From Schmidtea polychroa (taxonomy: Eukaryota), in assembly GCA_044892525.1 (NCBI GenBank), contig CM097886.1, positions 164,474,312 to 164,538,311 of the forward strand: a DNA stretch of 64,000 bases. Reading direction: 5' to 3'. Under the pieces are notes generated by a model. It was not told the DNA's origin. It was given only the letters and a program-made list of their open reading frames with translations, and made no database searches. The position numbers were made by a program, and so were the translations under genes. Numbering within the stretch: the first letter of the stretch is position 1; the number at the start of each line of letters is the position of its first letter. Below are positions 1-63,805 of this stretch, piece by piece.

Positions 1-42
1 TTAATTTAATTTATTAATATTGTTTATATTTGTTTTAATTAA

Positions 43-558
43 TTGTTATACCTGAATAAAAAATATTCAAATATAATTACATCATTAATGCTTAGCAATA
101 TAAATTATAAAGGAAAATGTTCAGTTTCTCATTTAAAGTTTCCAATGGGAAAACCACAACAAATTATCGATAGAAGTGGAAAGTACCCAATTATGTTTTT
201 CAAATCTGGTAAATGTAGAATAATGGAATGTAGGCAACCAATAAAAGTTGAAGATATACCATTTACAATAGAGGATTTTCAAATTCAATCCATTACTGTA
301 ACTGCAGACATTGGAACAAAAATTGATTTATATGATATATTAAAGAAAACTAATTCCATATATGAACCGGAAATCTTTCCAGCTTTGCGATATGTAAAGT
401 ATAATCCCTTATGCGTTAATGTGTTTGCCAGTGGTAAGATAGTCATACTAGGTATAAAAACATTGGATTATCACGATTTGGTTGAAAATATTCTTAACGA
501 AATTAGATCAATGACTGAAGAGTATGAAATCCTAAATTTCTTACTAACCATTACCTAA
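43..558 (+). CDS. Maverick-encoded compact TBP-like protein (likely start at ATG 88, 156 aa)
   Basis: Motifs LSNINY, MFFKSGKCRIM, FQIQSITVTAD, YEPEIFPALRY and NVFASGKIVILG align with the two TBP repeats (IQNIV, IFSSGKMV, IQNMVGSCD, YEPELFPGL, IFVSGKVVLTG). Confidence 0.85.
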   Translation: MLYLNKKYSNIITSLMLSNINYKGKCSVSHLKFPMGKPQQIIDRSGKYPIMFFKSGKCRIMECRQPIKVEDIPFTIEDFQIQSITVTADIGTKIDLYDILKKTNSIYEPEIFPALRYVKYNPLCVNVFASGKIVILGIKTLDYHDLVENILNEIRSMTEEYEILNFLLTIT

Positions 559-706
559 CAATATGTGTTGTATATGATTGTATATGTAAATATATGTTGT
601 AATACTAGTATATGAATTTGATTGGTTGTTGTACATGACTATGTGTTTCTTGTGTGTTTAAATATTGGTATAAATACAAGTACATTATTTATTTATTTCA
701 TTATAA

Positions 707-1046
707 ATGTTATCCCAATCAATTGATGGTAAGTTACAATTTTAATTTTAAATTTATTTTAATTTTATTTTTAGAAATAATGTATCAAGCTCTTGTTAAT
801 AAGATGATACAACTGTACACAAAAGAACTTTGTGACTTGGTGTTCTGTGCACCAGAAACAAGAAATATTCGAATTCTGGAGGCTACTGGAATCAATTTAA
901 TTTAGTATATTTCAAACTATAAGAAAAATAGAAAAAATTGGATTAAAGATGAGCCCATATGCGATTCACCATGTATGTGCTGTGGAAATTTGAGGATCGC
1001 CAGAAATAAGCTGGAATTAGCTTTCACCATAGAGAGATTGTTATAA
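707..1046 (+). pseudogene. Spliced Maverick accessory 'TGI' gene: exon 707-728, intron 729-774, exon 775-1046, one in-frame TAG at 903
   Basis: GTAAGT...TTTTAG intron of 46 nt. Spliced product is MLSQSIDEIMYQALVNKMIQL...ATGINLI*...ICDSPCMCC. Homologues at 43879-44443 and 63427-63805. Confidence 0.65.
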
Positions 1047-1150
1047 TAAATTATTTTAAATTATTGTTTTTAACTTTTTATTTTTAAAATTTAGTTATTT
1101 AGTTTAAATTTTATTTTGTTTATGTTTTATTTTGTTTATATGTTTAATTT

Positions 1151-1195
1151 ATGTAAATTTGATTGGTTGCACATGTGCCTGATTCAGTATAAATA
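1151..1195 (+). promoter_or_regulatory. Octamer-like / CCAAT (ATTGG) / TATA promoter of the SSB-like gene
   Basis: ATGTAAAT at 1151, ATTGG at 1162, TATAAATA at 1188, ATG at 1229. The 26-nt ATTGG-to-TATA spacing is repeated in Maverick-2. Confidence 0.55.
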
Positions 1196-1228
1196 AAGGT
1201 TTTTTATGATGAATGTGTGCAATTATAA

Positions 1229-1669
1229 ATGTATCTAACAAAAGGAGAAAAAATATCCAATGGTATTGAAACAGTGAAACCTACTCGAACAAAGAAAGAT
1301 TTCAAGCCTGTTCAAGTGTTCCATGACTATAAGATGTATTTCTTGGTGAATGAAATTGAGTACAAGTTATCGAAGCCTGTTACATTGACTAAAACTCAAT
1401 ATTCAAATTTACACGGAAATATATCAAAAGAGGATGTTGATTCAATCAATAAAGTTTTACAACAGATCAATTAAAAATTGAGTTGTACTGAAAACATATT
1501 CATCAATTATCGGCATACAAGATTTCATGATGCTTTTGATGAAATAGAGTTTAAAGAAACAGAGAATTGGTATATCAATATAATAATTCAAGGATATAAA
1601 TTATCCTCCAATGAAGTTATGACACCAATATGAAGGATTGATCAAGCGAGAATTTCTCTTGTATTTTAA
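1229..1669 (+). pseudogene. Maverick accessory gene, putative OB-fold ssDNA-binding protein, two in-frame stops
   Basis: Reading through TAA 1472 and TGA 1631 gives ...FHDAFDEIEFKETENWYINIIIQGY...TPI*RI, collinear with the intact ORF 43212-43625. Confidence 0.65.
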
Positions 1670-2075
1670 TGATCGAGATTTTATATAAAATAAATTTTTG
1701 TATTTTGAAAACTGTCTTTTTATTATTTAATTAAATTAATTTAAAAATTATAGCTCTGGTTAGAGAATAAATCTGTTTGCTTCAAAAGTAATTTTATAAG
1801 TAATCGAGCTTTGATTGATATAAATTATTATTATTATTTTATTATTAATATTATTTTAATATTATTATTTATGGGATTGGTGGCAAAGTGGTGAATTTAC
1901 TTTTTGATTTTTGGTTTTGAAGTTAGGTATGAGGTTCAATTCCAAGTATGGGCGACTTTTCCATCTTGCATCCTCACATAGAGTAGTCAATAGTACTTGA
2001 CTCTCACATAGACCACCTGTGACCACTAAGTATGACGACACAGTTACCATGGTCAGTATATTGAGTCATCAATAA

Positions 2076-2300
2076 GTGGTCAGTTAGTAACAGGTTTGTA
2101 TATGACGTAATTAGCACGCGAGTGGTAAATTAGTAACAATGTGTGTATTATGTAATGGACACGTGAGTGGTCAGTTAGTAACAATGTGTGTATTATGTAA
2201 AGGTCAAGGGTGAGGTCAGTTAGCAACTAAATTTATATTACGTAATAGCCACGCAAATGGTCAGTAACAACTGGGTGTGTATTACATGATCGGCCATATT
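2076..2300. repeat. About 45-bp subterminal tandem repeat (5 copies) in the Maverick TIR
   Basis: GTGGTCAGTTAGTAAC-like units start at 2076, 2122, 2167, 2212 and 2257. Confidence 0.85.
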
Positions 2301-4061: not shown

Positions 4062-4263
4062 ATTTATTTAAAAGAGAGCTTGAAGAATATAAATCAGTAA
4101 TATATCGATGTTTTTTGATACTCATGACTTTTCGGTACTGCCTTTTTCAAGTGAATTTTAAAATTTTAAAATTCACTTGAAACGGCAGTGCCAAAAAGTC
4201 ATGAGTATCAAAAACATCGATATACTGCTGATTTATATTCTTCAAGCTCTCTTTTAAATAAAT
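4062..4263. repeat. About 200-bp loopless hairpin (foldback) centred on AAAA|TTTT at 4163/4164
   Basis: ATTTATTTAAAAGAGAGCTTGAAGAATATAAATCAG... is the reverse complement of ...CTGATTTATATTCTTCAAGCTCTCTTTTAAATAAAT, with a few mismatches. Confidence 0.9.
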
Positions 4264-4403
4264 ACATATAAATATGTATTTAAAGCGATAATATTTCAAA
4301 GAAATTATAACAATTATAATTTTTTGATTATCTAAGTAAAGGTTCTCAATCACTTAAAATGTTGTATTATGCAGGTTTGTTCTACTTTGTTTATTGGTAC
4401 AAT

Positions 4404-4625
4404 TGTTAAATATGTATATCCATGTATATATGTAGTGTGATTGTGAGTGCATATTATAATAGAGATCGTTAGAGCCCAGCAGTGTCTCCTTTAAAACTTG
4501 TTCGTTGACTGGTGGGATGGTTGTATGTTGTATGTAGTGTTGTAGTAATAAATAAGTATATAATATATTACAACGAACTTAATATAAGAAATTAATTAAA
4601 CTTTACAAAATTTATTTATACAACA
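4404..4625. mobile_element. Probable solo LTR (222 bp)
   Basis: TGTT...AACA termini, near-perfect 5-bp flanking duplication ACAAT/ATAAT and an internal AATAAA. Confidence 0.45.
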
Positions 4626-4761: not shown

Positions 4762-7700
4762 CAGTGGCGGATTTAGATTTTGGTGCGTGGGGGCGAGGAA
4801 AATTTTCAGGAGGCGCCATAAATTATGAAGATGGTACTACTTATTTTCGCGAGTATTGAGTAAATACTAATATTATTAAAAAGCATTATATTCAGTAAAT
4901 TTATTCTAGTAAATTTATTGATGTAACAAACAAGTTTATTTATTATTTAAATTGCTTCCTGTGTGATTTCATTGAAGCAATACGATTTATATTTGATTCA
5001 AAGTCAATGTTCTCAGCCAGTTCGCGTTCTATTGAAATTAATGCTAATCCAGACGGACGTTCGTTTGTCATTGTTGATCGCAAATAAATTTTGATGATTT
5101 TCAGTCTACTGAAACTTCTTTCAGCAGTAGCAGATGTAACAGGAAGAGTCAAGTATATTTTATAAAGAATTGCCAAATTGGGAAGTCCTGGCGCCATCTG
5201 TTTTTCAACCAAGAAAGGCAGCACCTCTTTAAGTTGTAGTTCACAAGATAGTAATTGGCGTATTGATGCATACACGTATTTGAAAGTATCATATTCTAGG
5301 ATTGCTTCTTCAATATTAATATCGTTTTTGTAAATGTCGCATAAATTTTGAAAAGATTCTTTATTTTCTTCTGATATTTGTGATGGATCAAGACAGGAGA
5401 ATAAAGCAACAGTGTTATGAAAATCATTAAAACGTTCATCTAGTTGTGTTACAAGTGTATCCAAGACAGTGAAATACGTTTCACATTTGAAGCGTGTAGT
5501 TGGATCATCAACCCTTTCATCTCTGTTAAGTTCACCTGCCATGTGTTTCCTTTTTGCAACTCGCTTTTCTTTAAATTCTGTTTCAACATCTAGTAAGGAA
5601 CAATTTTTGATAATAAATGATTTTACAGCAACATTTAGACTTTCAAAAGCTTTATCACTTCTCATATCAGCAAACTTATTTCTGGCAACATAAATCAATT
5701 GTTTTGCAAACGCAATATCAATGCCCTTTCGTTGCAAATAGTTTGATAGCACAAAGATATTATCTAGCAACTTTTGTAGAAATAGCATCAAAAAAACAAA
5801 AGAATATTTTGTTATCAAAATAGATAGTCCCATAGCTTCTGCTCTGACACTTCCTTTGTGTTCTTTTGATTCCCCAAAATTTATATCTTCTAGAGTAGAT
5901 ATAATAGCGGAGAATGATCCAACAACTGCATCAACTGCATGCTTTCGGCTTGCCCATCTTGTATCAGAAAGTCGTTTTAGAGTATCTACTATCGATTCAT
6001 ATCGAGACTTCTGATGTTCTACGGAGAATATGTAGCCGTGGTAGACTTGATGTAAGGAAAGTATACAACTTTTCTGTTGTACCAAAAAACAACTGAACAT
6101 CACTGTTAAGAGACATTGCTTCAATAGTCACCAAATTCAATGCATGAGAACAACAGTGAACAAAGATGGCATTTGGTGAAAGTGTCTTTATCTTAGTTTG
6201 AAGACCATTTTTAATCCCAGACATCACAGAGGCACCATCATATGCCTGTCCTCTACAAAGTGTCAATGTTTCGCTTTTGTAACTCCGTTAATAATATATT
6301 AGAAAATGCTGCAGCATTACTGTTTTCTAAAGTGTAGAAGCCTATAAATCGTTCAACAACTTGTCCTGATTTTAACACTAATCTTAAAGAAACTGACATC
6401 TGATCAACTCTGGATATATCAATTGTTGAATCAACAATTAGAGAAAAGAATTGTGCAGACCTAACTTCATTATCAATATTTGCGGATAATTCTGAGCCAA
6501 GTGATTGAATTAGGTCATTTTGTACATCATGACATAAATAAAGTTCATTTTTCTTTTCAAACATAAGATGATTGTCCAAAGTGGAATCATATTTAGCCAA
6601 TAAAAATAGCAATTCACGAAAATTTCCAGTATTACTACACTTGTCAGAGCCAGAATGTTTTCTGTGTCCTCTAAATGGCAAACCTTGTTTTGCTAAAAAC
6701 AACGTTGCATTTACCATTCGTTTCAAAACTTCTCTATTTTTTCCACCTGATAACGCTCCTGACTAATCAAACCAGATATCACAGTTTTATCATTTGAAAT
6801 GCGATATTTAGCCAGAAAATATTGACATATTACACTTTGATGTTGATTGGAAGTTTCATGTTTAACGATTTTTTCCATGCCTTTTTTCCAGTTATAAACT
6901 CCAAAATTTGGGTCGGACCATTCCTTGCTATAATTTTCAGTTTTACAATCAGCGAATAACCAGCAAGCTTGGCAATGCATTTTTTGATTTGTTGGTGAAT
7001 AGACAAGCCAATTTCTTTCCTTCTTCATACTACCTTTTCCAAAACATTTTGTGTACCAAGAAATTTGAAACTTGCGCCCCAATTCATCTGTCGGAAATTG
7101 AAATGGTTCATTGAGTCCAGGTTGACATGGTCCGATTTCAAACAATTTTCGTATCAGTTTCGAGCTTATGCTCGTATTAATGTAGAGTCCTGGATCTGTA
7201 GGAAAGTCGGATTGAGGAAAAAGTGATTCTTGTAAAATATCTGAAGCAAGTTGTTCTTCCACTGTATCAAATTCTGAATCACCCTGATTATGTTTCAAGC
7301 CCTGAGCAGGTAATGTTACTGTCTCAGTATTCTCTGCACATGAATGTATAGCTGGGTGTTGTTCATCAACTAGAGATAGTACTTGCTCATCTTCAACAAG
7401 AACTTCAGATGATGTTTCTGTCTCAGCAGGCTCAGCACAGAAACTCGAATGATTAGATGAGTGTTGATCATCAAATACATGCTCATTTTTACCAGAAACT
7501 TCAGTTGATTGAACTACTGGCAGTTTAGACTGTTTAGTTATAAATGATGTTAACTTAATATATTTGCTAGCATCTGCCTTGAGGCTGGCTTCCTTTGCCA
7601 ATTTACGCCTAGATGATCCACTTAATTTGGTAACTGCTTTGCTTTTATTAGTGTCACCAGCTGACTCAGCCATGGCTCTAATTTAAATTTTATTTTAATT

Positions 7701-8292: not shown

Positions 8293-10473
8293 ATGGAAAC
8301 TCCTTTTGATTTGGATAATGATAAATATTTGATAATGGATAATGCAGTTTATTGGGCAATATGGTTGGAAAAGTATTCATTTTTTCTTTTATTTTAAGTG
8401 AAACTGTCTAATTTATTGAGGGAAAGAATTAAATATCGAATTCCTTTTGGTTTTTAATTATAATGGATGTACGATAAAGAACGATTTAGACTATTAAAAG
8501 ATGAAATTGAAATTTAATTTCTTTTGCTTTTAATTGTAATAGAAGATATTTTCTTCCATAAGTTTTTTGTTATCTTTCCTTATTGAATTTTTTATCTATT
8601 TATTTATTTTTCAATTCTTCTTTAGTGATAATTCACTATGGTAAATTATCGCTATATAGTTTTTTATATAGAAATTTTAAATCGCGTAAATCGTAAAAAA
8701 TGACAACTTATAACGGATCCTAATTACAAATAAAAAGAAAAATTAAAAAGATACAACAACACATTACATTGACGTTGATGGAACCAAAATTGATATTTAT
8801 CTTTGAACAGGATTAGCAACACCAAATATAAAAATATAATATGTATTTCAAACAGGTACATGTGAACTGACTGGACCGCTAGCACGTTTCCATATTATAA
8901 TTAATTTAAACAAATTTTCATATTAAAGATCATTTCAAGAATCTCCCGGTACCGAAAGATTATTACAAAGCAACGAACACGACATTCATCTGGATGGGAA
9001 ATATTGGTCCGTACGTCGGTTACAATAATGAAACATTTAATCCATTAAAATCACAATTGATTGGTTGTGTTGAATATTTCTATTTCAATAACCAACCAAT
9101 CGCATTGAAAAATCAAAACAATCAAATTTTCCCATCCTGTACCAGCCAGACTGTGACAGAACAAGTCAACAATCGGACAATGAAGTCATCCAGATCAATA
9201 AATGTGCAAATATATGATTGTTCCTTGTCGGGAATTAATGCCAACCGTTGCGATCCAATCGGTGAGGAATTTCTAAATTCAAATTAATTATTAAATTAAT
9301 TAATCAACGAATACTTTCAGAACTGCCCGTCTATAAAGATTCCAACCAATCATATCACAGATATGAGAATAATAATTATAATAAAACAATAAAAATATCC
9401 TTAGTTTGGAAGCAACTTTATTCTAAAGAATTTTGTTTGATGGAGATCAAATTGAGGTGAGATTGTGTTGGGATAAATGGATTATCATGGGCATATTCTA
9501 GAAATGGGACAATAATATTTGTTGTCAATAATATTAATGTTGTTGGCATGTACATGTACAATACTGATGCCGATACTAATCCGTCTCTCATATTATTGGA
9601 TAAAATTTCATTGGATAAAATAAATAAATTATCCATGGCATTCGGAATCTCAGAATTTATGGTCAAGGTGATTTGATGAGTATCCGGGAATTTCATTTGT
9701 TTTAATATTGTAATGGCAGATATTTAACGGGATCCAGATTCATAAATTTATTACTGATTCAATTGGCGCACCAATCAAAATCAATGTTGGAAAATCCCGT
9801 AAAAAACAAATTTGCAGAACATTTGAAGGAATTCTGAGTTTGATTATTTGCATTCTGTAATTGGTTGATGGATGTTGAAACAGGTTTCCAATACGATTCA
9901 TCAGATTTCACGAGATCCGGAAACGGAAATATGAAAGCTAAGGGTCACGGCAATAATTCAGTAGTTGTTAGTTTCATCAAACCTAACAATGTAATTCTCA
10001 TAATTGCGTATAATCTAATTAATTGAATATAAAAAGCCACGAAGTGTTTAGCTGTGTAAAAATTTCGTGCGTGACCTCGTGATTTTAGACCTGAAATGAA
10101 ATCCTAAAAATGGATATTCGTATAAATTTGTTAATGCCTGTTTATGCTGCCAAATTACTTAAATTATTACCAAAGAGTTTCTGATTCTTTTTCAGAGATA
10201 AATGGCGTAGAAATATGTTGGCGGAGATCTGTGGAATTATGTAGAAATTGTCCGCCCATGCAAATGAAGGAAATGAAATTAAATAATGTTGACCAACTGT
10301 GAAAGTATGACTAAGCCTGTTACAGAATTTATAAAAATGTAGATGTTATGAGGGTTATTTAAATGAATAAAGAATATTCAAGCCTTCTAGACTTTGAATG
10401 TTTTCAGGAATATACCAAAACTGAAAAAATTACAAAGGAAGTTAAGATTTATCCAAGATATATACCACTATAC

Positions 10474-12350
10474 CAACGGTGGGCAAATGCGGCTCTTCGT
10501 TGAGTAAACTGCGGCTCATTGATAATTGAATTTTTGATAATTGAATTTGAAAATTGAATTCGATTTTTTTATTTTGAAATTTTTTCAACTGAATTTTTAA
10601 AAAAAAATTTTTTGTTGCAATTGTATTTTCATAAATGTTAAAAATTAACGAAACATTGTTTTTCACATTTTACTGCTTTTTAAAATTATTTTGTAGTAGG
10701 CGGCGCTTTGTTATAACAACGAGAGAGAAGCAATGAAAATAAATTTAGTGAAATTTAGTGAATTTTGATTAGTTAGTATTTTTGTTTGTACAATATTGCG
10801 GTCGTTTGTATATTTTAGTATAGTTTTCTATTCGTGTTTTTTGAAAAATTTGGTAAGAAGATTTTTATGAAGCATTTTAAAATTTTAAATTAATTAAAAT
10901 TAAATTTATGTCTTTTTATTATTTTGTTTAAATTTCAGTAATATAAGTTATTCAAATTTATTATTACAATGACCTCAGAAAACATCAAAAAACGAAAATA
11001 CAAACAAGAAAATAGAACTTTTCAAGAAGAATGGACAGAAAAGTTTTTTTTTATTGACAATAATGGTAAATCGTTGTGTCTTATTTGTAAAGTTACAATT
11101 TCCAACTACAAAGTAACCAATTTACGTCAACACTATGAAGTAAGTCATCCACACTTATCAATTCAATATCCACTCAATTCAAAATTGCGAAGAGAAAAAC
11201 TTAAGTCATTGCAATCAGGGCTTCAAAACCAACAAGGACTAATGTCTTCTTTTAGTCGAGAAGATGACAGTGCCAACGAAGCTAGTTTTTTGATAGCTTG
11301 GAATATAGCTCGTGCTAAACATACATATGGAGAAGGTGAATTTATTAAGAGAAACTTGGAAGAAGTGATTAAAGTTTTGGATCCGGATAACTCAAAACTA
11401 CATAAATTGATCTCACGTATTCCTATGTCACGTCGTACAACTGCGCGTCGAATTGGCCAAATTAGCGAAAATGTTGAAAATAATTTGATGTGTGATTTAA
11501 AAAATTGTACAGCATTCAGTTTAGCTCTCGACGAGTCTACTGACATTCAGGATGTTCCACAATTAGCCGTTTTTGTCAGCTTTGTATCTTCTGACGTAAA
11601 AGTAAAGGAAGAAATTTTAGACCTAGTAGCTCTTAAAGAAACAACTCGCGGTATCGATGTCAAAACTGTGCTTGATGTAGTGATGGACAAGTTTGAATTG
11701 GCGCGTGATAAACTTGTAAGTGTTGCGACAGACTGCAATGATGGGGAAAAATCAAGGTCTCATTGGTCTTTTAAACAGAGATCCAAATATTCCTCATTTC
11801 TTATCTCTTCAATGCATAATTCATCGCGAGCATCTCATAGCGAAGTACTTTAAATACGAAAATGTGTGGAAGATTGTTTTGAAGATTGTGAATTTAATTA
11901 GAACAAATGCCAAAACACATCGTCAATTTAAAAAAATATCCACACTTAAAACAAGTTGCTTGCCGTCTAATTTCAATTTTTGGTACAACATATTGTTGTG
12001 AATCTTTGTACTCCACAATGAAGTTCGTGAAGTCGAAATATCGTTCACAGTTGACCAATCAGCATCTTACAGAATTGCTGCGAACAGCTTTAACAAAGTA
12101 TACACCAAATTTCAAAGATTTGACCAAAAGTCTTCGTTAATTCAAGAAATTTTATTACTTTTTATTAATGGATTTTTATTATATTTTATGTTTGTTACTT
12201 AAATTTTGAAATAATTGTTTTTAATAGCGTTTAAGTCTTTTTTAATCAAATTAATGAAATAAAAAAAAATATGTAGTTCACTATGGTGGCTCTTTAAAAA
12301 ATAAATTTTCGGAAAATGTCTCTCATTGAACTCATGCGTGCCCACCCTTG
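10474..12350 (+). mobile_element. Buster/Charlie-type hAT (GTF2IRD2-like), internally deleted
   Basis: TIRs CAACGGTGGGCA and TGCCCACCCTTG with a perfect 8-bp TSD CACTATAC (central TA). Confidence 0.93.
10969..12140 (+). pseudogene. GTF2IRD2/Charlie-like transposase relic
   Basis: FQEEWTEKFFF, CLIC BED finger, FSLALDESTD, HCIIHREHL-like and TTYCCESLYS motifs. Frameshifts are present and the middle is deleted. Confidence 0.88.
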
Positions 12351-27692: not shown

Positions 27693-29873
27693 GTATAGTG
27701 GTATATATCTTGGATAAATCTTAACTTCCTTTGTAATTTTTTCAGTTTTGGTATATTCCTGAAAACATTCAAAGTCTAGAAGGCTTGAATATTCTTTATT
27801 CATTTAAATAACCCTCATAACATCTACATTTTTATAAATTCTGTAACAGGCTTAGTCATACTTTCACAGTTGGTCAACATTATTTAATTTCATTTCCTTC
27901 ATTTGCATGGGCGGACAATTTCTACATAATTCCACAGATCTCCGCCAACATATTTCTACGCCATTTATCTCTGAAAAAGAATCAGAAACTCTTTGGTAAT
28001 AATTTAAGTAATTTGGCAGCATAAACAGGCATTAACAAATTTATACGAATATCCATTTTTAGGATTTCATTTCAGGTCTAAAATCACGAGGTCACGCACG
28101 AAATTTTTACACAGCTAAACACTTCGTGGCTTTTTATATTCAATTAATTAGATTATACGCAATTATGAGAATTACATTGTTAGGTTTGATGAAACTAACA
28201 ACTACTGAATTATTGCCGTGACCCTTAGCTTTCATATTTCCGTTTCCGGATCTCGTGAAATCTGATGAATCGTATTGGAAACCTGTTTCAACATCCATCA
28301 ACCAATTACAGAATGCAAATAATCAAACTCAGAATTCCTTCAAATGTTCTGCAAATTTGTTTTTTACGGGATTTTCCAACATTGATTTTGATTGGTGCGC
28401 CAATTGAATCAGTAATAAATTTATGAATCTGGATCCCGTTAAATATCTGCCATTACAATATTAAAACAAATGAAATTCCCGGATACTCATCAAATCACCT
28501 TGACCATAAATTCTGAGATTCCGAATGCCATGGATAATTTATTTATTTTATCCAATGAAATTTTATCCAATAATATGAGAGACGGATTAGTATCGGCATC
28601 AGTATTGTACATGTACATGCCAACAACATTAATATTATTGACAACAAATATTATTGTCCCATTTCTAGAATATGCCCATGATAATCCATTTATCCCAACA
28701 CAATCTCACCTCAATTTGATCTCCATCAAACAAAATTCTTTAGAATAAAGTTGCTTCCAAACTAAGGATATTTTTATTGTTTTATTATAATTATTATTCT
28801 CATATCTGTGATATGATTGGTTGGAATCTTTATAGACGGGCAGTTCTGAAAGTATTCGTTGATTAATTAATTTAATAATTAATTTGAATTTAGAAATTCC
28901 TCACCGATTGGATCGCAACGGTTGGCATTAATTCCCGACAAGGAACAATCATATATTTGCACATTTATTGATCTGGATGACTTCATTGTCCGATTGTTGA
29001 CTTGTTCTGTCACAGTCTGGCTGGTACAGGATGGGAAAATTTGATTGTTTTGATTTTTCAATGCGATTGGTTGGTTATTGAAATAGAAATATTCAACACA
29101 ACCAATCAATTGTGATTTTAATGGATTAAATGTTTCATTATTGTAACCGACGTACGGACCAATATTTCCCATCCAGATGAATGTCGTGTTCGTTGCTTTG
29201 TAATAATCTTTCGGTACCGGGAGATTCTTGAAATGATCTTTAATATGAAAATTTGTTTAAATTAATTATAATATGGAAACGTGCTAGCGGTCCAGTCAGT
29301 TCACATGTACCTGTTTGAAATACATATTATATTTTTATATTTGGTGTTGCTAATCCTGTTCAAAGATAAATATCAATTTTGGTTCCATCAACGTCAATGT
29401 AATGTGTTGTTGTATCTTTTTAATTTTTCTTTTTATTTGTAATTAGGATCCGTTATAAGTTGTCATTTTTTACGATTTACGCGATTTAAAATTTCTATAT
29501 AAAAAACTATATAGCGATAATTTACCATAGTGAATTATCACTAAAGAAGAATTGAAAAATAAATAAATAGATAAAAAATTCAATAAGGAAAGATAACAAA
29601 AAACTTATGGAAGAAAATATCTTCTATTACAATTAAAAGCAAAAGAAATTAAATTTCAATTTCATCTTTTAATAGTCTAAATCGTTCTTTATCGTACATC
29701 CATTATAATTAAAAACCAAAAGGAATTCGATATTTAATTCTTTCCCTCAATAAATTAGACAGTTTCACTTAAAATAAAAGAAAAAATGAATACTTTTCCA
29801 ACCATATTGCCCAATAAACTGCATTATCCATTATCAAATATTTATCATTATCCAAATCAAAAGGAGTTTCCAT

Positions 29874-37117: not shown

Positions 37118-37457
37118 TTATAACAATCTCTCTATGGTGAAAGCTAATTCCAGCTTATTTCTGGCGATCCTCAAATTTCCACAGCACATACATGGTGAAT
37201 CGCATATGGGCTCATCTTTAATCCAATTTTTTCTATTTTTCTTATAGTTTGAAATATACTAAATTAAATTGATTCCAGTAGCCTCCAGAATTCGAATATT
37301 TCTTGTTTCTGGTGCACAGAACACCAAGTCACAAAGTTCTTTTGTGTACAGTTGTATCATCTTATTAACAAGAGCTTGATACATTATTTCTAAAAATAAA
37401 ATTAAAATAAATTTAAAATTAAAAATGTAACTTACCATCAATTGATTGGGATAACAT
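37118..37457 (-). pseudogene. Spliced 'TGI' accessory gene (Maverick-1)
   Basis: Mirror of 707-1046. Confidence 0.65.
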
Positions 37458-37605: not shown

Positions 37606-38121
37606 TTAGGTAATGGTTAGTAAGAAATTTAGGATTTCATACTCTTCAGTCATTGATCTAATTTCGTTAAGAATATTTTCAACCAAATCGTGATAATCCA
37701 ATGTTTTTATACCTAGTATGACTATCTTACCACTGGCAAACACATTAACGCATAAGGGATTATACTTTACATATCGCAAAGCTGGAAAGATTTCCGGTTC
37801 ATATATGGAATTAGTTTTCTTTAATATATCATATAAATCAATTTTTGTTCCAATGTCTGCAGTTACAGTAATGGATTGAATTTGAAAATCCTCTATTGTA
37901 AATGGTATATCTTCAACTTTTATTGGTTGCCTACATTCCATTATTCTACATCTACCAGATTTGAAAAACATAATTGGGTACTTTCCACTTCTATCGATAA
38001 TTTGTTGTGGTTTTCCCATTGGAAACTTTAAATGAGAAACTGAACATTTTCCTTTATAATTTATATTGCTAAGCATTAATGATGTAATTATATTTGAATA
38101 TTTTTTATTCAGGTATAACAA
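37606..38121 (-). CDS. TBP-like protein (Maverick-1)
   Basis: Mirror of 43-558 with one K to R change (SGKC vs SGRC). Confidence 0.85.
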   Translation of the reverse strand: MLYLNKKYSNIITSLMLSNINYKGKCSVSHLKFPMGKPQQIIDRSGKYPIMFFKSGRCRIMECRQPIKVEDIPFTIEDFQIQSITVTADIGTKIDLYDILKKTNSIYEPEIFPALRYVKYNPLCVNVFASGKIVILGIKTLDYHDLVENILNEIRSMTEEYEILNFLLTIT

Positions 38122-43211: not shown

Positions 43212-43625
43212 TTAAAATAGTTGTGAAAGTCTAGTAGACATAATTTTCCAAATAGGAGAATACACATCATTATTATCAACTTCATATCCCTGGATTGCAA
43301 TTGTTATATACCAATTTTCATTTTCTTTGAAACTGATTTCATCAAATGCATCATAAAAGTTTGCATATCTGTTGTTGAACCATGCATGTTGATTACATGT
43401 TAGATTAGAATTTATCCGTTTAAAAACATCATCAATAGTTTTAACATCTATCATTGAAAGCGTGCCGGATAAGAATTGAAATTGAGTTGGAATTAGCTTG
43501 ACCGGTGCAACCAATTTCATATTGATTTCTTCTTTCAAAAAATACATTTTGTAGTTGTGGAATATTTGAACCGGTTGTACAAGTTCTTCTTTAGGTTTTT
43601 CGGTGCATGAAATTTTCTTGGTCAT
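43212..43625 (-). CDS. Intact accessory protein, putative OB-fold SSB
   Basis: 137-aa open ORF; C-terminal WYITIAIQGY...YSPIWKI beta-strand pattern. The functional call is an inference. Confidence 0.7.
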   Translation of the reverse strand: MTKKISCTEKPKEELVQPVQIFHNYKMYFLKEEINMKLVAPVKLIPTQFQFLSGTLSMIDVKTIDDVFKRINSNLTCNQHAWFNNRYANFYDAFDEISFKENENWYITIAIQGYEVDNNDVYSPIWKIMSTRLSQLF

Positions 43626-43878: not shown

Positions 43879-44443
43879 TTATTTTGAATCAATCTGACTC
43901 GAGTGGTGATTTCTCAGAGTCTTCACCAAACACCATTCAACATATTGTTGATAATGGAAATTGCAGCAGCTACATCCGAAAATACAAGGATCCTCTGGTT
44001 TCATTTCTTTCATCACCCTATATTGACATCCCATAGAAGGGTGTTAATTATATCGAATATCCAGATTCCTGTTTGGTTGTATACCAAATCCGGATTGATA
44101 GCTGGATCTATATCTTGTAGAATTTCATTTAATTCTGGATAATAGAAGCATAATCTTTGCAGGATANNNNNNNNNNNNNNNNNNNNNNNNNNNNNNNNNN
44201 NNNNNNNNNNNNNNNNNNNNNNNNNNNNNNNNNNNNNNNNNNNNNNNNNNNNNNNNNNNNNNNNNNNNNNNNNNNNNNNNNNNNNNNNNNNNNNNNNNNN
44301 NNNNNNNNNNNNNNNNNNTTGAAATTACCATAAGTTGCATGCTCTTTCGTTGAGGTGATTGCGGAACTTTGTATGTTGTACATTTTTGTTGAATAAATGA
44401 TTTCTAAACAGAAAACATATTGTTTAAAACAATCATTAACCAA
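43879..44443 (-). pseudogene. 'TGI' accessory gene homologue interrupted by an N-gap and a frameshift
   Basis: LCFYYPELNEI...NQTGIWIF...PCIFGCSCC resembles LVFCAPET...ATGINL...CDSPCMCC. Confidence 0.5.
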
Positions 44444-44490
44444 TTAGAAATTAACCAATTAGAAATTAACCAATTAGAAATTGACCAATG
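44439..44490. repeat. 15-bp AACCAATTAGAAATT x3 plus a partial copy, at the TBP-like stop
   Basis: Directly visible; each unit contains CCAAT. Confidence 0.85.
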
Positions 44491-44866
44491 AAATTATCTC
44501 ATTTCGAACATTGTCAACAAATTCCCTACTCTCCAAATTTCTCAACCCCAGCATGACAACCTTTCCATTAGCAAACACGTTGACACATATAGGGTTATAT
44601 TTTATTAGTCTTAGTGCCGGAAACAATTCCTGTTCAAACATACAATCACATTTTTTCGATATGTTATATAGATTGATACTATGTCCCATATCCATAGTAA
44701 TGGTAATTGATTGGATTATAATATTATTTATTCGATATTGTAATTTATTAATATCCAAGGGTTTCTTACATCCCATGATTCTGCATTTACCTGTCTTGAA
44801 AAATATTATCGGGTATTTCCCGCTTCTATCGATAATTTGCTGTGGTATTCCTGGTGGGAACCTCAT
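44474..44866 (-). CDS. TBP-like protein (Maverick-2); frame open upstream as ILANINYRG without an ATG
   Basis: IFFKTGKCRIMGC, FEQELFPALR, NVFANGKVVMLG. Confidence 0.82.
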   Translation of the reverse strand: MRFPPGIPQQIIDRSGKYPIIFFKTGKCRIMGCKKPLDINKLQYRINNIIIQSITITMDMGHSINLYNISKKCDCMFEQELFPALRLIKYNPICVNVFANGKVVMLGLRNLESREFVDNVRNEIISLVNF

Positions 44867-45013
44867 ATTTGATACATCAAAAATTCCTCGATAATTTATA
44901 TTTGCTAAAATTATTAAATCATTTATGAAAATTACTCTTTATATATAATTTTAGTACGAGTTCATTAAATCATCGAATATAAACAAATACTTATATATTT
45001 AAAAAAATTTGAA

Positions 45014-54591: not shown

Positions 54592-54934
54592 TATATTTAT
54601 GACATAAAAGTTCCAATATTTATTTCTGTTGAATCAGGGACTATTATATAATAATGAATATGCGATATAAGACATGTTTCGGACATACAATAACATGCAC
54701 ACATCAAATCATTCATAATAATTATACACTTATATGTGTGTATTACAAAAAAGGTTTCTTAAACTTTGAAAAAAGGATTGCGTTTTCGCGGGAGCGGGGG
54801 GGCACACACAGCTCAGATGTAACTTTATTTACATGTAGGATAATAAATGCTCTTACTGCAAATGGCAACTTCAAGTTTGTTGTGTTAAAACAGACAACCT
54901 GAAACTTGTTAAACAGTTCCCAAAAAAATCTCAA

Positions 54935-56122
54935 AAATATAAAATTCATTTCAAACAGGCACATGTGAACTGACTGGACCTCTAGCACGTTTCCATATTA
55001 TAATTAATTTAACTACAAATTCTCATATTATAGATCAATTCAAGAATCTCCCGGTACCGAAAGATTATTACAAAGCAACGAACACGACATTCATCTGGAT
55101 GGGAAATATTGGTCCGTATGTCGGTTACAATAATGAAACATTTTATCCAATAAAATCACAATTGATTGGTTGTGTTCAATATTTCTATTTCAATAATGAA
55201 CCAATCGCATTGAAGAATCAAAACAATCAAATTTTCCCATCCTGTACCAGCCAGACCGTGACGGAACATGTCAACAATCGGACAATGAAGTCATCCAGAT
55301 CAATAAATGTGCAAATATATGATTGTTCCTTGCCGGGAATAAATGCCAACCGTTGCGATCCAATCGGTGAGGAATTTCTAAATTCTAATTGATTATTAAA
55401 TTAATTAATCAATGAATACTTTCAGAACTGCCCGTCTATAAAGATTCCAACCAATCATATCACAGATATGAGAATAATAATTATAATAAAACAATAAAAA
55501 TATCCTTAGTTTGGAAGCAACTTTATTCGAAAGAATTTTGTTTGATGGAGATCAAATTGAGGTGAGATTGTGTTGGGATAAATGGATTATCATGGGCGTA
55601 TTCTAGAAATGGGGCAATAATATTTGTTGTCAATAATATTAATGTTGTTGGTATGTACATGTACAATACTGATGCCGATACTAATCCGTCTCTCATATTA
55701 TTGGATAAAATTTCATTGGATAAAATAAATAAATTATCCATGGCATTCGAAATCTCAGAATTTATGGTCAAGGTGATTTGATGAGTATCCGGGAATTTCA
55801 TTTGTTTTAATATTGTGATGGCAGATATTTAACGGGATCCAGATTCATAAATTTATTACTGATTCAATTGGCGCACCAATCAAAATCAATGTCGGAAAAT
55901 CCCGTAATAAACAAATTTGCGGAATATTTGAAGGAATTCTGGGTTTGATTATTTGCATTCTGTAATCGGTTGATGGATGTTGAAACAGGTTTCCAATACG
56001 ATTCATCAGATTTCACGAGATCCGGGAACGAAAATATGAAAGCTACGGGTCTCGGCAATATGAAAGCTACGGGTCTCGGCAATATGAAAGCTACGGACCA
56101 CGGCAATAATTCAGTAGTTGTA
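54935..56122 (+). pseudogene. Third, diverged fragment of the laminin-G-like gene (paralogue of about 8830-9970)
   Basis: ORF 55099-55392 differs from 8994-9287 at a handful of residues; contains a 24-bp triplication at 56033-56104. Confidence 0.8.
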
Positions 56123-56631: not shown

Positions 56632-59188
56632 CAGCGCTGGCGAACCTATGACACGCGAGACAATTTCGTGTGTCACGCCAAACCTTTGAGATAAAACAAA
56701 TTTGTGTACATTTTAGTAGTATAAAATCATTGAAATCGCAATTTTACACTTCAGCATGATTTTATTGTGCAAATATTTTAGAAACCGTTAACTAGGAATC
56801 GAACAATAGGTCATTTTCAGATGGCAGAATATATATTTCTTATGATTAAATCTATAAATTATTTTCTATCATTTTTTGTATATTCCGCATTTGTTTTAAC
56901 AAGTAAAAATAAACAAGTTAAGATGCGCACTAATTTGATGACGCAGACATTTGTTGACATTATTATTGGTGAAAGATTGAATTTTTTTGTAAATATTTAA
57001 TAATTTAAAAATAGAAATTTTGCTAAATAAAATGTCGTGTTGAAAGCAAAAAAAATAAAACTTTCAGAAGAAGGAAGTGGCAGAGAATTCCAAGATTGGT
57101 GGACTGAAAGATATGGAGTAATCAACAAAAAAAGTAAGGCCTTGTGTGTATTGTGTTCTGAAAGCGTTGTTTGTCGAACATCTTCAGTTAAACGTCACTA
57201 TGAAAGTAATCACAAGTGGCTTCTTGGAAAAAGCGAAGATGAACAAAAAGAATATATATTGCGCCGGTTAAAAAATGCAAATCCTGTTCGTTTGTTAAAA
57301 GTACATCTAACTTAGTGTCTGCAAGTTTTGAAGTTCCCAAAATAATAGCTAAGCATGTCAAGCCTTATTACATCAAAGAAACTTGGCTAGAATATGCGCC
57401 ATATTTGTTTGAAGATTTTCCAAATAAAGACAAAATTTTTCAGCGAATAAAAGATCTGCCAATTAGTTGAAATACAGTAAAAGAGAGAATAATTAACTTG
57501 AATTCAAATATTGACAATCAATTAAAAGAAGACATCAAGTTATGTCAGGCCTTCTCTATTTACCTGGACGAGAGTACTGATGTAACATCGTCTGCTCGAT
57601 TAGCCATCATTGCTAGATATCCGAAAGAAAACGAAATGCGCGAAGAACTAATAAAACTAACCAAATTATCTGGAACAACAACGGGTGCAGAAATATGCCA
57701 AAAAGTTGTGGATGAACTTAAAAATGCAGATTTAGACGTAAATATAATAGTCTCTGTGACGACTGACGGTGCACCAAGTATGACTGGAAAACATGCGGGT
57801 TTCGTGAATTTGTTTACGAAACATGTTGGACACCCACTGGTTGCGTTTCACTGTATTGTGCACCAAGAAGCCTTGTGTGCAAAATCCTGTTTGAAGGAAC
57901 TTGAAGATGTTATGAAAATTGTAACAAAAATTGTAAATTTCATTACTGCTCGTGCTTTGAATAAGAGAAAATTTGAACTGCTGTTAAATGAAGTCCAGTC
58001 CGTTTACTCTAGGTTACTAATGTACAATAGTGTTTGCTGGCTTAGCAGAGATCATGTGCTGGAACGTTTCGTGGAATGCCTTGATGAAATTTGAATGTTT
58101 ATGGAAGACAACAAACAGAAGTATTCAGAGTTAACTGATGTTGACTGGCTCAGCAGACTAATGTTCTTTACAGATTTTATTTTACATCTAAATGAACTTA
58201 ACACTAAGTTTCAAGGTTTTGGGAAAACCGTTGACGAGGCTTTCGACGTTATAAAAGCATTTGAAAAAAAGTTGAAAATTTTCAAACGTGATTTGGAAAA
58301 ACAAGAGTTTCAATATTTTCAAAGACTTAAAAGATTTTATACTGAAATAGAAATCCATGAAACCGTTGTCAAAGAAGCTCAGACTTTGTTATTTTTAGAG
58401 ACAATCGACGCAACCCTCGAACAATTTTCAGTGCGTTTTGTTCAGTTTAGAAAGTTTGAAGACACAACAAAATTTATAAAATATCCAGATACAGTTAAGT
58501 TTGAAAATTTGGATTTAACAATGTTCGACTGGATGGAATTACAAGTTTTTCAAATGCAGTTAGTTGAGCTACAGTCCAGCTCAATTTGGAAACCAAAGTT
58601 TGTTGACTTACGATTGCGACTAGAAAGAATTGAATGTGAGCGCTGCAATGGATCAGAACCGCAGCTACCAGCTGAAAAAGAGGTACTCAGTGTCTGGAAT
58701 TGTCTTCCTGAAACTTTCAACTCTCTGAAAAAAGTAACGATTGCGATTTTGTCAATTTCCCCATCTAGTTACTCGTCCGAATCATTATTTTCCTCGATGA
58801 ACTTTATAAAATCAGACACCAGAAACAGTTTGACTGTCGACTTGAGTGCAGCTTGTGTAGCTTTGAAGAATACAAGATATTCTCCAGATATTAAACTTCT
58901 ATCATCCACCATACAACAACAAAAGTCACATTGATTTTACTAAGTCATTAAATCACATTAAATGTATTCTTATAGTAAAGTTATTGTATTATTGTAATTG
59001 TAATTTTGTTAAAATTGTAGTTATAACTATTCTTTTTGACTAAACTAGACTTGAAACATTTAATGTGAACACATGGTATGTAACGGAATCAATTAAAATG
59101 CTAAAAAATGTACTTGGCACGCCAACGTGTTTTTATTTTTCAATTTTAAAATATTGGCACGCAATCTAAAAAAGGTTCGCCACCTCTG
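56632..59188 (+). mobile_element. Buster/Charlie-type hAT (GTF2IRD2/EPM2AIP1-like), near full length
   Basis: TIRs CAGCGCTGGCGAACCT and AGGTTCGCCACCTCTG; TSD GGCTACAG/GACTACAG. Confidence 0.92.
57037..58934 (+). pseudogene. hAT transposase with stops and a frameshift
   Basis: CVLC..HY BED finger, LDESTD, TTDGAPSM, HCIVHQE, SSYSSESLFS. Confidence 0.9.
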
Positions 59189-59599: not shown

Positions 59600-60640
59600 C
59601 ACGTCTATGTATTTCTTCATAAAGAAGCTATTTTCAAACGATTATCATAGATGAGACGATGTTGGAACATTCATTAAGGAATGCAATAAATATTTTAAAG
59701 TGTTACAAATGCCTACTTCAAGACAAGAAGTGATGGTCGAATTACTGATCGACAAACAGATATATCAAATATCAAATACAGGAGTTGACCAAAATATATA
59801 ATGTTATAAGGAAAGATTGCGGAACGCATTCGTCAAGAAAACAAGTTTGGCAGAGAATTTACAATCTGCTATGTTCTATAGACAGACGAGTGAGGAGCTC
59901 GATAAATATTTTACAATCATAGACGAGTTAGTCGATAAAATATTGGGGCATGAGTTAAACAAGGAAAGTTTAACAGAATATCTACTGGTTCACTGTGCAG
60001 CCGAGAAGACTTTGAAGCGAGAATTGCGTCTAAGTGACACCAAAAGAACAACGGAAGTGAAGAAAAAATCAAGAAGTTACATGAATCTCGTATATTTGCA
60101 GAAGACACCTATGCAGAGAGAGAAAGGAGGCCAGAACAGAATATAACAAGAAGTTACAGAGACGCGGTAACAAATCAAGCAAGAAATATTGTATCACCAA
60201 GATATAATAATGAGCAGAGAGAGTATCGAGAAGAAAAACCGAACAGAAATAAGAACGAATGTTGGACATGTCACAAGGTAGGACATTTGAGTAGAGATTG
60301 CATAACAAAGAAGGCAGTTACATGTTTCACATGTGGAAGACAAGGACATGTAAGAAGTCAGTGTCCACAGATGCAGAGAAAGGTAGTCGAATGTTATGCG
60401 TGTGGTACCCCGGGACACGAGAGAAGAGATTGTCAAAAAAGGAGGTGTAGCTTGGGAGGTCGTAAAGAAGCAGATTGTTACACAAATTTGGAGAGAATAA
60501 GATATCGGAGAATCAATGAGAATTTTGGAAGACAACAAAAGCAATACGAAGCAGGGCATTGTTATCAAGGAACGAGAAAGGATACAAGACAAGCAGACAA
60601 GAGATACGTAGCATTCATAGACGAACCAAATGATGAATAG
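59600..60640 (+). pseudogene. gag with three CCHC zinc knuckles
   Basis: CWTCHKVGHLSRDC, CFTCGRQGHVRSQC, CYACGTPGHERRDC. Confidence 0.85.
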
Positions 60641-62600
60641 AAGATAAATACAGAGAATAGCAGCGGCACCAGGTACGTTTCAGGAACTGATGAAAAAGTA
60701 TTAATAGGTTTGAGATATGCAGCAGTATACCTAGAGGATATTTTGATATTTACAGAAACGATCAATCATCACTATGAAGTTTTAAATGAAGTGCTGGACA
60801 AAATTGAAAAGGCGGGTCTTAGGATAAACCCTGAAAAGTGCCATATCCTTAAAGAGGAAATCAAATTTTTAGGTCACATAATCAAAAAAGATGAAATACA
60901 GACGGACCCGTCAAAGCTAGACGCGATTAAATCATTAGAAAAGCCAAAATGTGTTAAGAATATGAGAAGCTTCCTAGGAATATGAAATTACTACAGAAGA
61001 TTTACAAAGGAGGCAAAGAAGGCAAGAGTTTTAGAAGAGCTATGCGGGTTAAACAACAAAAAATTAATTTGGACTGACCGATGCAACATCGCATTCGAAA
61101 ATATGAAAAATCCTTTAATGTCCTCACCTATTCTAGGGTTTCCAGATTTCGAAAGAGAATTCATTCTGGATACTGATGCCAGTTTTGACACGATTTGAGC
61201 AGTAATATCGCAGAAAGACGACAAAGGGTGCGAAAAGGTTATAGCATACGGTTCTCATGCAATGAGCAATCATGAAAAGGGATATTGCATAACAAGGAAA
61301 GAGTTGGTGGCAATCTATTATTTTTGTCAACACTTCAATCATTATTTATATGGAAAATGGTTCATTTTGAGAACGAACCATAAAGCTCTCACGTTTATGT
61401 TATCCACAAAGAAACCAATAACAACGCAATTTCAGACATGAATTAACTACCTCAGTAGTCTGGATATTAAAATATGGTATAGAAAAGGTACGGATCATGC
61501 AAATGCAGATATGTTGTCAAGGAGTACATGTGGAACATGCACACAATGTTTATTGGCACACGAAGACGCGAAAGTGGAAAGAATGAAAACCCGAAGAATA
61601 AACACGATGGAAAAAGCTGAAGAGTATAAATGGCAAAAAGATAATACAGAAATAGAACAAATAAAAAAGGAAATAGTACAGGGTTCAAGTTGGAAATTTA
61701 TACTGGTAGACAACGTGGTGAAAACTATAGCGGGTAAGATATGGATACTTTGAGACAAAAGACAAGAAATGATAAAGACTATGCATATTTTGCTATCACA
61801 CGCAGGAGGAGAAAAGGTGACAAAATATGTAGCGGACAATTACGATATTGGAGACATAAAAGAATCAGTAAAAGAAACAATTGGACAATGTGAGCCATGT
61901 CAAAGAACGAAAGTTGTGACAACAAAGATGAAGGAAGAGACAATAAAACTGACAACAGAGGAGCCGTGGGAGGAAGAGTACATTGATATATGTAGCTCAT
62001 TACAGGAAACATTCAGAAAGACAAGATATATAATCGCAATGATTGATCAATGTAGCAGATATATCTCTCTGATTGCTGTCGCTAAACAGGATGAGGAAAC
62101 GGTGAATGAAACAATACTACAAAAATGGATTCTTAGATTTGGAGCACCAACGGAAAATCACACAGATTTTGGAAAAGTATTTAAATCTAAGTTGATGAAA
62201 GATTTTACAAAATAAATGAGAATTACACTATGCTTTTCAAGTCCATACCACCATAATACAAATGGTGTGATAGAACGTCAATTCAGGACAATAAGAGACT
62301 ATATAAATGTATCATTAAAAGAAAAAAGTAAAACAGATTGGGCAGAGATCATACCAGAGATTGAATTTACCATGAATGCAACATTTCAGAAATCAATTGG
62401 GCGAAGTCCCGCAGAAGTAATATTTGGAAGAAAAATAGCTCAAGAACAATTTCATAGTAAAGCGCCGATTTCACAAAAAGAAGATACGCGAGAAACAACG
62501 CAGACAAAAAGATCATTCAATATTGGAGATGAGGTTCTGGTAAAAGTAGAATAAAGAACGAAAGACAAGGAAAAATACGAAGGACCATACAGAATAATGT
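60640..62600 (+). pseudogene. pol relic lacking protease and RT N-half; RNase H and integrase remain with stops
   Basis: AAPGTFQELM, YLED, FILDTDAS, HAG..CEPCQ, IDQCSRY, NGVIERQFRTI. Confidence 0.88.
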
Positions 62601-63009
62601 AGATTCATGATCGTCAATATCTGCTACAAGACCAAAGTAGAGATGCTGAAAAGATAAAAAAAATTCTTAAAGAAAGGGGATGTGAGGTGTTTTCAGATGA
62701 GAATTAAATATTATAAGATTTATTAAGATAATTTTAAATGATAAATAATGGACTATTAAAATAGCTTTTAAAATAATATCAAAATTTTAATAAATGGTTT
62801 TGAAAATATTTTATTCAACGCTTAAAATTTCTTTGAAAATTATACAATATTTCATTAAATAAATACTTGGAATTTTGACGCTAACTTTTGAACCGGATTT
62901 AAAAAATAATTTAGAAGATGTGCTAATATTGACCATCAAATTCTTGGTCAACGTCGTCCAATATTTGGTCAACATCCATGGCATCTATCCTTAAATCTCA
63001 TGTCCAATA

Positions 63010-63402
63010 ATGGGATGTAAAAAATCAATCAAAGTTGAAAATTTAAAATACGAAATCAAAGATTTACAAATTCAATCAGTTACTGCTGATATTGAATCAA
63101 ATGTTAATTTAAATGATTTATCAAAGTATATGAAATGTATTTATGAACCAGAAATATATATAGCATTAAGATATATAAAATATAATCCAATGTGCGTTAA
63201 CATATTTGACAGTTGTAAAGTAGTAATTCTCGGTATAAAAACATTGGATTATCATTTATTTGGGTATAAAATTATTAAAGATAATAAATCAGTAATTGAT
63301 GTCATGAAATTATCAAACATTTTCCTAAAATATAGTTACATGCATGAATCTAATTGGTTGATGGCGTGTATCAAAATAAATATATATACAAGAGCATTTT
63401 AA
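63010..63402 (+). pseudogene. Third TBP-like paralogue, 5'-degenerate (Maverick-3 cassette)
   Basis: MGCKK..LQIQSVTADI..YEPEIYIALRYIKYNPMCVNIFDSCKVVILGIKTLDYH. Confidence 0.8.
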
Positions 63403-63426: not shown

Positions 63427-63805
63427 ATGTCAAATATATCTCAAAGTGGTATATTTTGACTATTGTTTTTCAATTTATAATTTTTATTTTTTAGCAAAAA
63501 TGATACAGATTCTGATTGGAAAAATGACTGAATTATTTCCGAATATTTGAAAGGGTTTAATCTATTTGACACCAAAGACTATTCCATTCTGAATATGGAT
63601 GTCAACCGGCATAGATTTGAATTTGGTCTTGTTTGATCACTTGAGAACGTTAGGTGAAGATCTTTCTCCTGTGGACAACAGTAACAGGCCATCAATATAT
63701 CCATATAAATTCGAAGGTTGTCTTGATAGACAAACGAACTACAATGCATGGCTATTAGAAAAAAAGTTTAGAAAAGCTCACTTTTCATCAATTGTGGATA
63801 AATAA
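63427..63805 (+). pseudogene. Third 'TGI' gene: exon 63427-63448, intron 63449-63494, exon 2 with two TGA
   Basis: MSNISQSAKMIQILIGKM..L..LTPKT...STGIDL aligns with MYQALVNKM..L..CAPET...ATGINL. Confidence 0.6.

Follow-up and report, generated by a model that had tools for sequence, protein, structure and literature searches.

The window analysed here is a stretch of 64,000 nt from Schmidtea polychroa (GenBank assembly GCA_044892525.1, contig CM097886.1, positions 164,474,312 to 164,538,311 of the forward strand), and window coordinates count from its first letter. Toward either end of the window, directly behind a TBP-like gene, lies a copy of a small accessory gene carried by Maverick elements; a further copy, from the lineage formerly called Maverick-2, lies on the reverse strand. 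The lineages are denoted by letters, and the features are as follows.

88..558, +: TBP-like gene, lineage A (Pfam PF00352, E 1.5e-16 for 88-555)
619..676, +: putative host-type promoter, lineage A, with inverted CCAAT box TGATTGG (619) and TATAAATA (669)
707..728, +: exon 1, lineage A, 22 nt, with start codon, phase 1
729..774, +: inferred 46-nt GT-AG intron, lineage A, GTAAGT...TTTTTAG, phase 1
775..1046, +: exon 2, lineage A; TAG at 903-905 breaks the frame; AATAAA at 1045
1160..1474, +: CCAAT/TATA promoter and truncated remnant of the next ("SSB-like") gene; no Pfam match
37118..37457, -: mirror of the lineage-A copy in a palindrome, with the same stop and 1 difference in 340 nt
37606..38076, -: mirror of the lineage-A TBP-like gene
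43212..43625, -: downstream "SSB-like" gene, lineage D, with CCAAT/TATA promoter
43879..44383, -: lineage-D copy (exon 1, intron, exon 2)
44474..44938, -: TBP-like gene, lineage D (motif match)
62995..63402, +: 5'-truncated TBP-like remnant, lineage B, adjoining a Gypsy-type integrase
63427..63448, +: exon 1, lineage B, 22 nt
63449..63494, +: inferred 46-nt GT-AG intron, lineage B, GTATAT...TTTTTAG, phase 1
63495..63805, +: exon 2, lineage B; TGA at 63548 and 63590 break the frame; AATAAA at 63804
4943..7682 (-), 10942..12001 (+), 57031..58934 (+), 59802..62554 (+): nested hAT/SPIN-type DNA transposons and a Gypsy-type retrotransposon remnant (Pfam for three of them) that interrupt or flank the Maverick fragments
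8824..9955, 28211..29342, 54926..56060: 1.1-kb segment with an unnamed coding-like frame, present three times at 96% identity, no Pfam match

Copies in the window and their carrier

The carrier is an animal Maverick/adintovirus. Its integrase (PF00665, E 9e-10, window 39359-40279) and its A32/FtsK-type packaging ATPase (PF04665, E 1.6e-7, window 45014-45637) are recognizable, and long frames lie in the order expected for pPolB, protease, and major and minor capsid proteins, names that we assume in part from tblastn among the genome's own copies. The gene neighboring the accessory gene, which has no Pfam match, is presumably SSB-like. Related repeats in opposite orientation flank elements of one family of this genome, family I (see below).

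All copies of the accessory gene in the window are dead; they are fossils. Compared with its nearest relative, the lineage-A copy has 7 nonsynonymous changes and 1 synonymous change, which looks like the pattern expected for decay after insertion; the lineage-B copy, with a dN/dS of 0.45, retains one of the three motif cysteines. In the lineage-D copy, a TA repeat lengthens the intron as recorded in the genome, and exon 2 is frameshifted near 44015. The mirror copy at 37457-37118 exists because the window holds a large palindrome that duplicates one insertion (window 1-14104 reappears in mirror image at 38163-24062, the two arms being 99.97% identical). This palindrome, centered near 19,080, runs past the window start (G000:C2:164466900-164476800, L107), and at window 1-38163 it mirrors Maverick genes at 38000-45600.

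The earlier note had compared the copies beginning at 707 and 63427, and its gene models are borne out: both first exons are 22 nt long, both introns are 46-nt GT-AG introns in phase 1, and both copies sit directly behind a TBP-like gene; the in-frame stops had escaped its notice. It had found only sparse motifs in common between the two proteins; they are homologous, with 14 identities in 40 positions and a pairwise E value of 8e-7. Profiles built with the lineage in question left out score the first at 29.9 bits (shuffle maximum 15.1) and the second at 36.5 bits (shuffle maximum 8.8). In the third copy, the short lineage-D fragment of the window is marginal (15.4 bits versus a shuffle maximum of 13.1), and the "TGI" motif that it was said to share occurs in that lineage only in the window copy and the mirror of that copy. 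Literal "TGI" was thus dropped as a lineage-D feature, since the other loci, 28 of 30, read TRI. The cysteine cluster noted in this copy is present (CIFGCSCC near 43986), but the frame change near 44015 puts it out of frame with the "TGI" part.

Nine lineages and an intron position

In the genome assembly (781 Mb, 1012 contigs), nine Maverick lineages (A, B, B', C, D, E, F, G, and H) carry the accessory gene directly after the TBP-like gene. Protein searches were run per lineage, and the copy numbers are lower bounds, with at least 150 matches each. The accessory proteins of the main lineage groups are 26-55% identical to each other, and leave-one-lineage-out profiles recover 8 of the 8 lineages tested at 36.6-98.1 bits, versus maxima of 8.8-15.1 among 2000 shuffles per profile. 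The frame is open in 12 of the best 15 lineage-A matches, and exon 2 is open in all 29 fetched relatives of the 63427 copy. Nei-Gojobori estimates of dN/dS for exon 2 are 0.25 between two A sublineages, 0.20 for C/C', and 0.15 for B'/B'', where dS is near saturation; in distant pairs the ratio is 0.14-0.76 or saturated. Between lineages, dN is 0.42-0.98 for the accessory gene versus 0.22-0.39 for TBP. Judged by these comparisons, the accessory gene family is real and under purifying selection. The earlier proposal of a selected gene therefore holds at the level of the family, with a dN/dS of 0.15-0.25 in three sister pairs and mostly open frames, but not for the window copies with their stops.

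A truncated piece of the lineage-A gene (the acceptor and about 65 codons) has given rise to tandem arrays that comprise over 100 units, with periods of 300 nt and about 860-890 nt (G000:C1 269.36-269.42, 269.88-269.91, and 270.62-270.64 Mb; L016-L030). These arrays are a satellite born from a Maverick gene.

In lineages A, B, B', D, G, E, F, and H, exon 2 starts at the second base of the codon that lies 15 codons before the conserved proline of a [YF]P motif. Anchored on this proline, loci were scored with a rule that combines a G|GTA donor, an AG acceptor, and an upstream in-frame ATG. The counts for A, B, B', D, E, and F, listed below with those for G and H, include loci fetched twice. They omit rows in which the anchor is missing, which are those of tandem fragments, of a few decayed copies, and of the lineage-A copy of the window together with its mirror.

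Lineage A: 10 of 11 loci pass, intron 46 nt
Lineage B (young): 27 of 29 loci pass, 48-49 nt
Lineage B' (main group): 7 of 7 loci pass, 44 nt
Lineage D type: 29 of 31 loci pass, 43-66 nt, one 146 nt
Lineage E: 4 of 4 loci pass, 45 nt, 10-nt exon 1
Lineage F: 1 of 1 locus passes, 39 nt, 16-nt exon 1
Lineage G: 24 of 25 loci, 44-58 nt, one locus returning no row
Lineage H: three loci, 45 nt, 22-nt exon 1

As background, a slightly narrower rule passes at 141 of 267,244 positions (5e-4). In lineage C, which is young and abundant, the ATG plus 16 nt run straight into the site, with no donor in 31 of 31 loci; by sequence, lineage C is a precise intronless form. Intron signals thus stand at the same codon in eight of nine lineages, so we think it likely that the gene is spliced in these eight, as the sequences strongly suggest. 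Position and phase are identical although the introns of the eight lineages cannot be aligned, and the exon-1 peptides are not conserved across lineages. Since exon 1 gives little beyond a start codon, the intron likely serves expression rather than protein structure.

What, then, remains of the "identical architecture" of the two window copies? The position and phase of the intron are conserved beyond chance, but the exact match of 22 and 46 nt is partly coincidence. Intron length varies among the lineages from 39 to 66 nt, and exon 1 measures 10, 16, or 22 nt. Inspection of 10 gaps and 7 read-through matches in host chaperonin genes yielded introns of 42, 44, about 45, and 46 nt, the others being longer or unresolved; 46 nt thus falls in the host's short-intron class, and the length, being ordinary for host introns, was discarded as a conserved feature. 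The same fate met the in-frame ATG 5 nt into exon 2, which is there at both sites as claimed but is not conserved, occurring only in lineages A and B.

Could the gene be real and its intron never spliced, with translation starting at an exon-2 ATG and the GT and AG being chance occurrences in AT-rich DNA? Such a start codon is available, in frame and early in exon 2, in A, B, and B'. In lineage F the 39-nt intron is in frame and has no stop, so read-through is possible there. RNA contigs at one lineage-B locus (lineage B only, from three presumed-RNA runs and one unlabeled run) contain no intron junction in the best 15 of 42 rows; depth at the intron is 2.6 or 0, and this cover is thin and is evidence neither for nor against splicing. 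However, exon 2 of D, G, E, F, and H opens without an ATG, and E has upstream in-frame stops in 4 of 4 loci. The shared position and phase of introns that cannot be aligned, set against a background of 5e-4, and the precise intronless form of lineage C also argue for a true intron. We regard an unspliced gene as very improbable.

Maverick genes have been described as intron free, and their accessory genes are mostly uncharacterized; here, one family keeps intron signals at one codon, through divergence to 25-35% protein identity. Vertebrate Mavericks likewise have core modules and flanking accessory regions with diverse ORFs, and most of their copies are eroded, yet the genes of intact elements are reported to have no introns (PMC8097293); in contrast, the accessory gene described here has phase-1 intron signals in eight lineages and not in the ninth. 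For Polinton-like viruses, the introns reported are group I introns only (PMC12220804), and the main text on adintoviruses makes no mention of splicing (PMC8502044). Annotation by ORFs alone misses or truncates spliced genes of this kind. In a planarian, Polintons are reported to be derepressed when PIWI is knocked down (PMC8532177).

Putative promoter, poly(A) signal, and cassette turnover

The gene comes with signals of its own. All nine lineages have an AATAAA between -2 and +9 nt relative to the stop, a count made without a shuffle control and to which a TAA stop itself contributes letters. Five of the nine (A, B', D, G, and H) have a strict inverted CCAAT box no more than 130 nt from the start, for a background of 0.027 expected per 130 nt; lineage B has only a looser ATTGG, and C, E, and F have no CCAAT box. 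The same box precedes 3 of 4 "SSB-like" genes but 0 of 5 TBP genes and 0 of 14 genes of the ATPase, integrase, and capsid module, and in 6 of 6 cases the start of the ATPase is preceded, at 33-37 nt, by a TATAAA(C/T)A. This distribution suggests a split in these Mavericks between early genes (CCAAT, spliced) and late genes (TATAAACA, unspliced).

The accessory gene sits right behind TBP in every one of the nine lineages. The "SSB-like" gene follows it in A, B, B', D, and G, and in lineage F the accessory gene begins before the TBP frame has ended. Lineage H has an altered order ("SSB-like," TBP-like, accessory gene; L276:2194-3541, L227:3959-5222), with the "SSB-like" gene upstream of TBP, and the accessory gene still follows TBP. 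No "SSB-like" match was found in 57 of 57 loci of C, E, and F, most of which are short, some spanning whole C elements.

Two sister families allow presence and absence to be compared. In family I, which is young and has at least 40 copies, TBP is joined directly to the "SSB-like" gene in 40 of 40 scored matches at 100% identity, spread over all four large contigs, and three sampled elements with the core gene set and mostly open frames contain no match to the accessory-gene profile. Family G, with 40 full-length matches, is 92-99% identical to family I over ATPase and TBP (8 of 9 windows at 96-99% or close) and carries a block of about 710 nt that is absent from family I. Over its coding part, this block is 97-99% identical to lineage D, and in most G copies the protein is 95-98% identical to that of D, while the D and G TBPs are only 59-61% identical. 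Based on the I/G comparison and on the D-like block beside a different TBP, the gene is gained, lost, or exchanged as a unit together with its putative promoter, its intron, and its poly(A) signal, independently of the type of TBP. Mosaicism is reported to be common in viruses of this kind (10.64898/2026.10.13.758929), so cassette exchange is of a known kind. Together with the intronless lineage, the plus and minus sister families in one genome offer a compact natural test of the role of the gene and of its intron.

In a separate comparison, TBP and the promoter region of the ATPase are 59-72% identical between family D and families I and G, whereas the ATPase is 87-93% identical (L156:2890-3580 versus L091 and L270). 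We take this to mean that TBP and a divergent late-type promoter were exchanged together, which may help test whether TBP and its box covary.

The protein and its possible role

The accessory protein has about 95-120 residues, of which roughly the first 45 form the conserved core. AlphaFold predicts an all-helical protein (helices at 3-20, 22-28, 33-44, 48-57, and 78-106) in models of mediocre quality, with mean pLDDT values of 66.7 and 65.5; pLDDT is 71-80 over the first 50 residues and below 50 in the cysteine loop. Eight of the nine lineages have a C-x3-C-x2-C motif, to which C, E, and F add a CxxC. A putative metal site in this loop, as suggested in the earlier note, is plausible, but the five outside relatives described next lack the cluster.

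A search of 1.84 billion representative sequences gave 8 matches, two of which correspond to lineages C and F of this genome. Five relatives from outside (P0004, P0005, P0007, P0008, and P0009) have the core in common and lack the cysteine cluster, and a second search added four further relatives near P0007 and P0009; P0006, a repetitive chance match, was left out of the alignments. None of P0001-P0009 has a name on record. Searches of viral contigs with P0007, P0018, TBP, or a TBP alignment returned no match, and two metagenome loci considered as context for the outside relatives were rejected as unrelated chance matches. In Pfam, 5 lineage proteins gave 0 matches, and 15 members gave only two subthreshold matches, each to a single member; in PHROGs, 20 members gave only three single-member matches (E 0.06-0.09). 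Foldseek found nothing at an E value of 0.001 or less in PDB or BFVD. The best VIA-align Z scores, 6.1 (rmsd 2.8, 78 aligned) and 3.3, are generic for helical bundles and point to neither a known nor a new fold. The best PDB sequence match is the Rad23 XPC-binding domain (2qsf_X, E 1.0), a lead only, and STI1 or Rad23 XPC-binding domains are absent from the top 50 of either VIA-align search. Fragments of DEDDh/Rv2179c-like exonucleases in the ESM Atlas (score at most 0.88, or 0.76 in another search) are also leads only. Among 4321 candidates, no relative of 318-2000 residues was found, which is weak evidence against fusions. By these searches, the family has no identified relatives of known function. 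No paper on the gene was found by title or abstract start; it may appear under an Adintoc name in supplements.

Based on the observations above, we posit a dispensable cassette gene of a TBP-carrying Maverick, probably early and spliced, whose small helical protein likely binds a host protein, and we give this model an even chance. In this model, host RNA polymerase II would transcribe the gene early from its CCAAT-class promoter, the host spliceosome would remove the 5' intron, and the product would be a small, predicted all-helical adaptor in which the optional metal site may act as a stabilizer. The protein would have its target in the host and would not be tied to the TBP of the element as a fixed partner. 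Early timing is proposed because the CCAAT-class promoter is common to the "SSB-like" gene and absent from the TBP, ATPase, and capsid genes, and a host-facing role because the gene evolves fast, is dispensable, and is turned over and exchanged. Some observations count against the model: C, E, and F have no CCAAT box, so an "early promoter" is not general, and a purely host-facing gene need not stay behind TBP in 9 of 9 lineages or overlap it as in F.

The nearest analogy for a host-facing protein lies in the adintoviruses, for which Starrett et al. defined Oncoid and Adintoc genes (PMC8502044). Adintocs are also conserved small genes of unknown function in the accessory region, and a figure legend notes a TBP-like gene in a related MELD virus (PMC8502044); the protein described here may be an unnamed or an already numbered Adintoc. 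Oncoids and adenovirus E1A-type regulators are likewise small, cysteine-cluster bearing, probably early, and host facing, although Oncoids sit upstream of PolB and the accessory gene sits by TBP (PMC8502044). Among nine lineage representatives, neither the LXCXE Rb-binding motif of Oncoids nor their CR1 motif, (DEN)(LIMV)XX(LM)(FY), occurs (0 of 9 each); CR1 fits a C' variant (L070) by eye, inside a predicted structural helix. Oncoids also have adjacent Zn or Fe-S motifs, typically paired CXXC; here, the C-x3-C-x2-C motif and the additional CxxC of C, E, and F lie in a region with pLDDT below 50.

Is the protein instead a cofactor of the element's mini-TBP, a small cysteine-bearing activator with a part in reading the late-type promoter, comparable to accessory subunits of the viral preinitiation complex (vPIC) of beta- and gammaherpesviruses? 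The earlier note had suggested a functional link to the TBP-like protein, for which adjacency speaks. The gene lies directly downstream of TBP in all nine gene-bearing lineages, H included, and overlaps its end in F; the cysteine cluster is present in eight of them; and, with TBPs 54-69% identical from lineage to lineage, a single interface could suit them all. The vPIC subunits KSHV ORF30, 31, 34, and 66 are likewise reported as small, cysteine-bearing proteins beside a viral TBP mimic, and the cysteine motifs are reportedly needed in ORF34 and ORF66. Late expression is said to depend on these subunits, whereas the gene described here is absent from the high-copy, TBP-bearing family I, which has TBP and a TATAAACA box before its ATPase and major capsid genes. 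Co-occurrence with the viral TBP is therefore not constant, though family I could be complemented in trans. Cassette turnover also argues against a coevolving TBP partner: in D and most G copies, near-identical versions of the protein serve two TBPs that are 59-61% identical. The accessory gene evolves 2-3 times faster than TBP, and the TBP tree groups B' with D (92/95), whereas the accessory-gene tree, mostly unresolved, does not; the family and fold searches found no similarity to the herpesvirus subunits in sequence or fold. On balance, we consider a TBP cofactor somewhat unlikely. A combination of both ideas can also be imagined, a two-part switch in which an early, spliced helical/Zn protein would bind the mini-TBP and tune late-promoter recognition, encoded by an optional cassette exchanged between lineages. 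This version seems to us unlikely; if true, it would be a miniature counterpart of the herpesvirus viral preinitiation complex in an element of 15-20 kb. A helper in replication, working with the "SSB-like" protein or pPolB, would fit the CCAAT/TATA promoter type common to the "SSB-like" gene and the position of the accessory gene in A, B, B', D, and G, where TBP lies on one side of it and that gene on the other. However, family I has the "SSB-like" gene without the accessory gene, the C, E, and F loci, though mostly short, have the accessory gene without an "SSB-like" match, and the name of that gene is itself our presumption; we hold this role to be decidedly unlikely.

Several further observations on Mavericks in this genome were made along the way. 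Conserved orphan frames without a Pfam match include one between protease and PolB (L111:4956-5387, -), one hydrophobic (L112:3125-3502, -), and one acidic (L264:9497-9802, +). Lineage C has two tandem minor-capsid (penton-like) frames (L114:2-1842; L279:2943-4959), and a quite different Maverick lineage, with a PolB about 31% identical to that of lineage B, adjoins a lineage-C element (L113:1-10000). Several Maverick copies are folded into short perfect palindromes, with ATPase, TBP, and "SSB-like" genes back to back (L264:4549-10000; L062), suggesting products of hairpin or template-switch replication.
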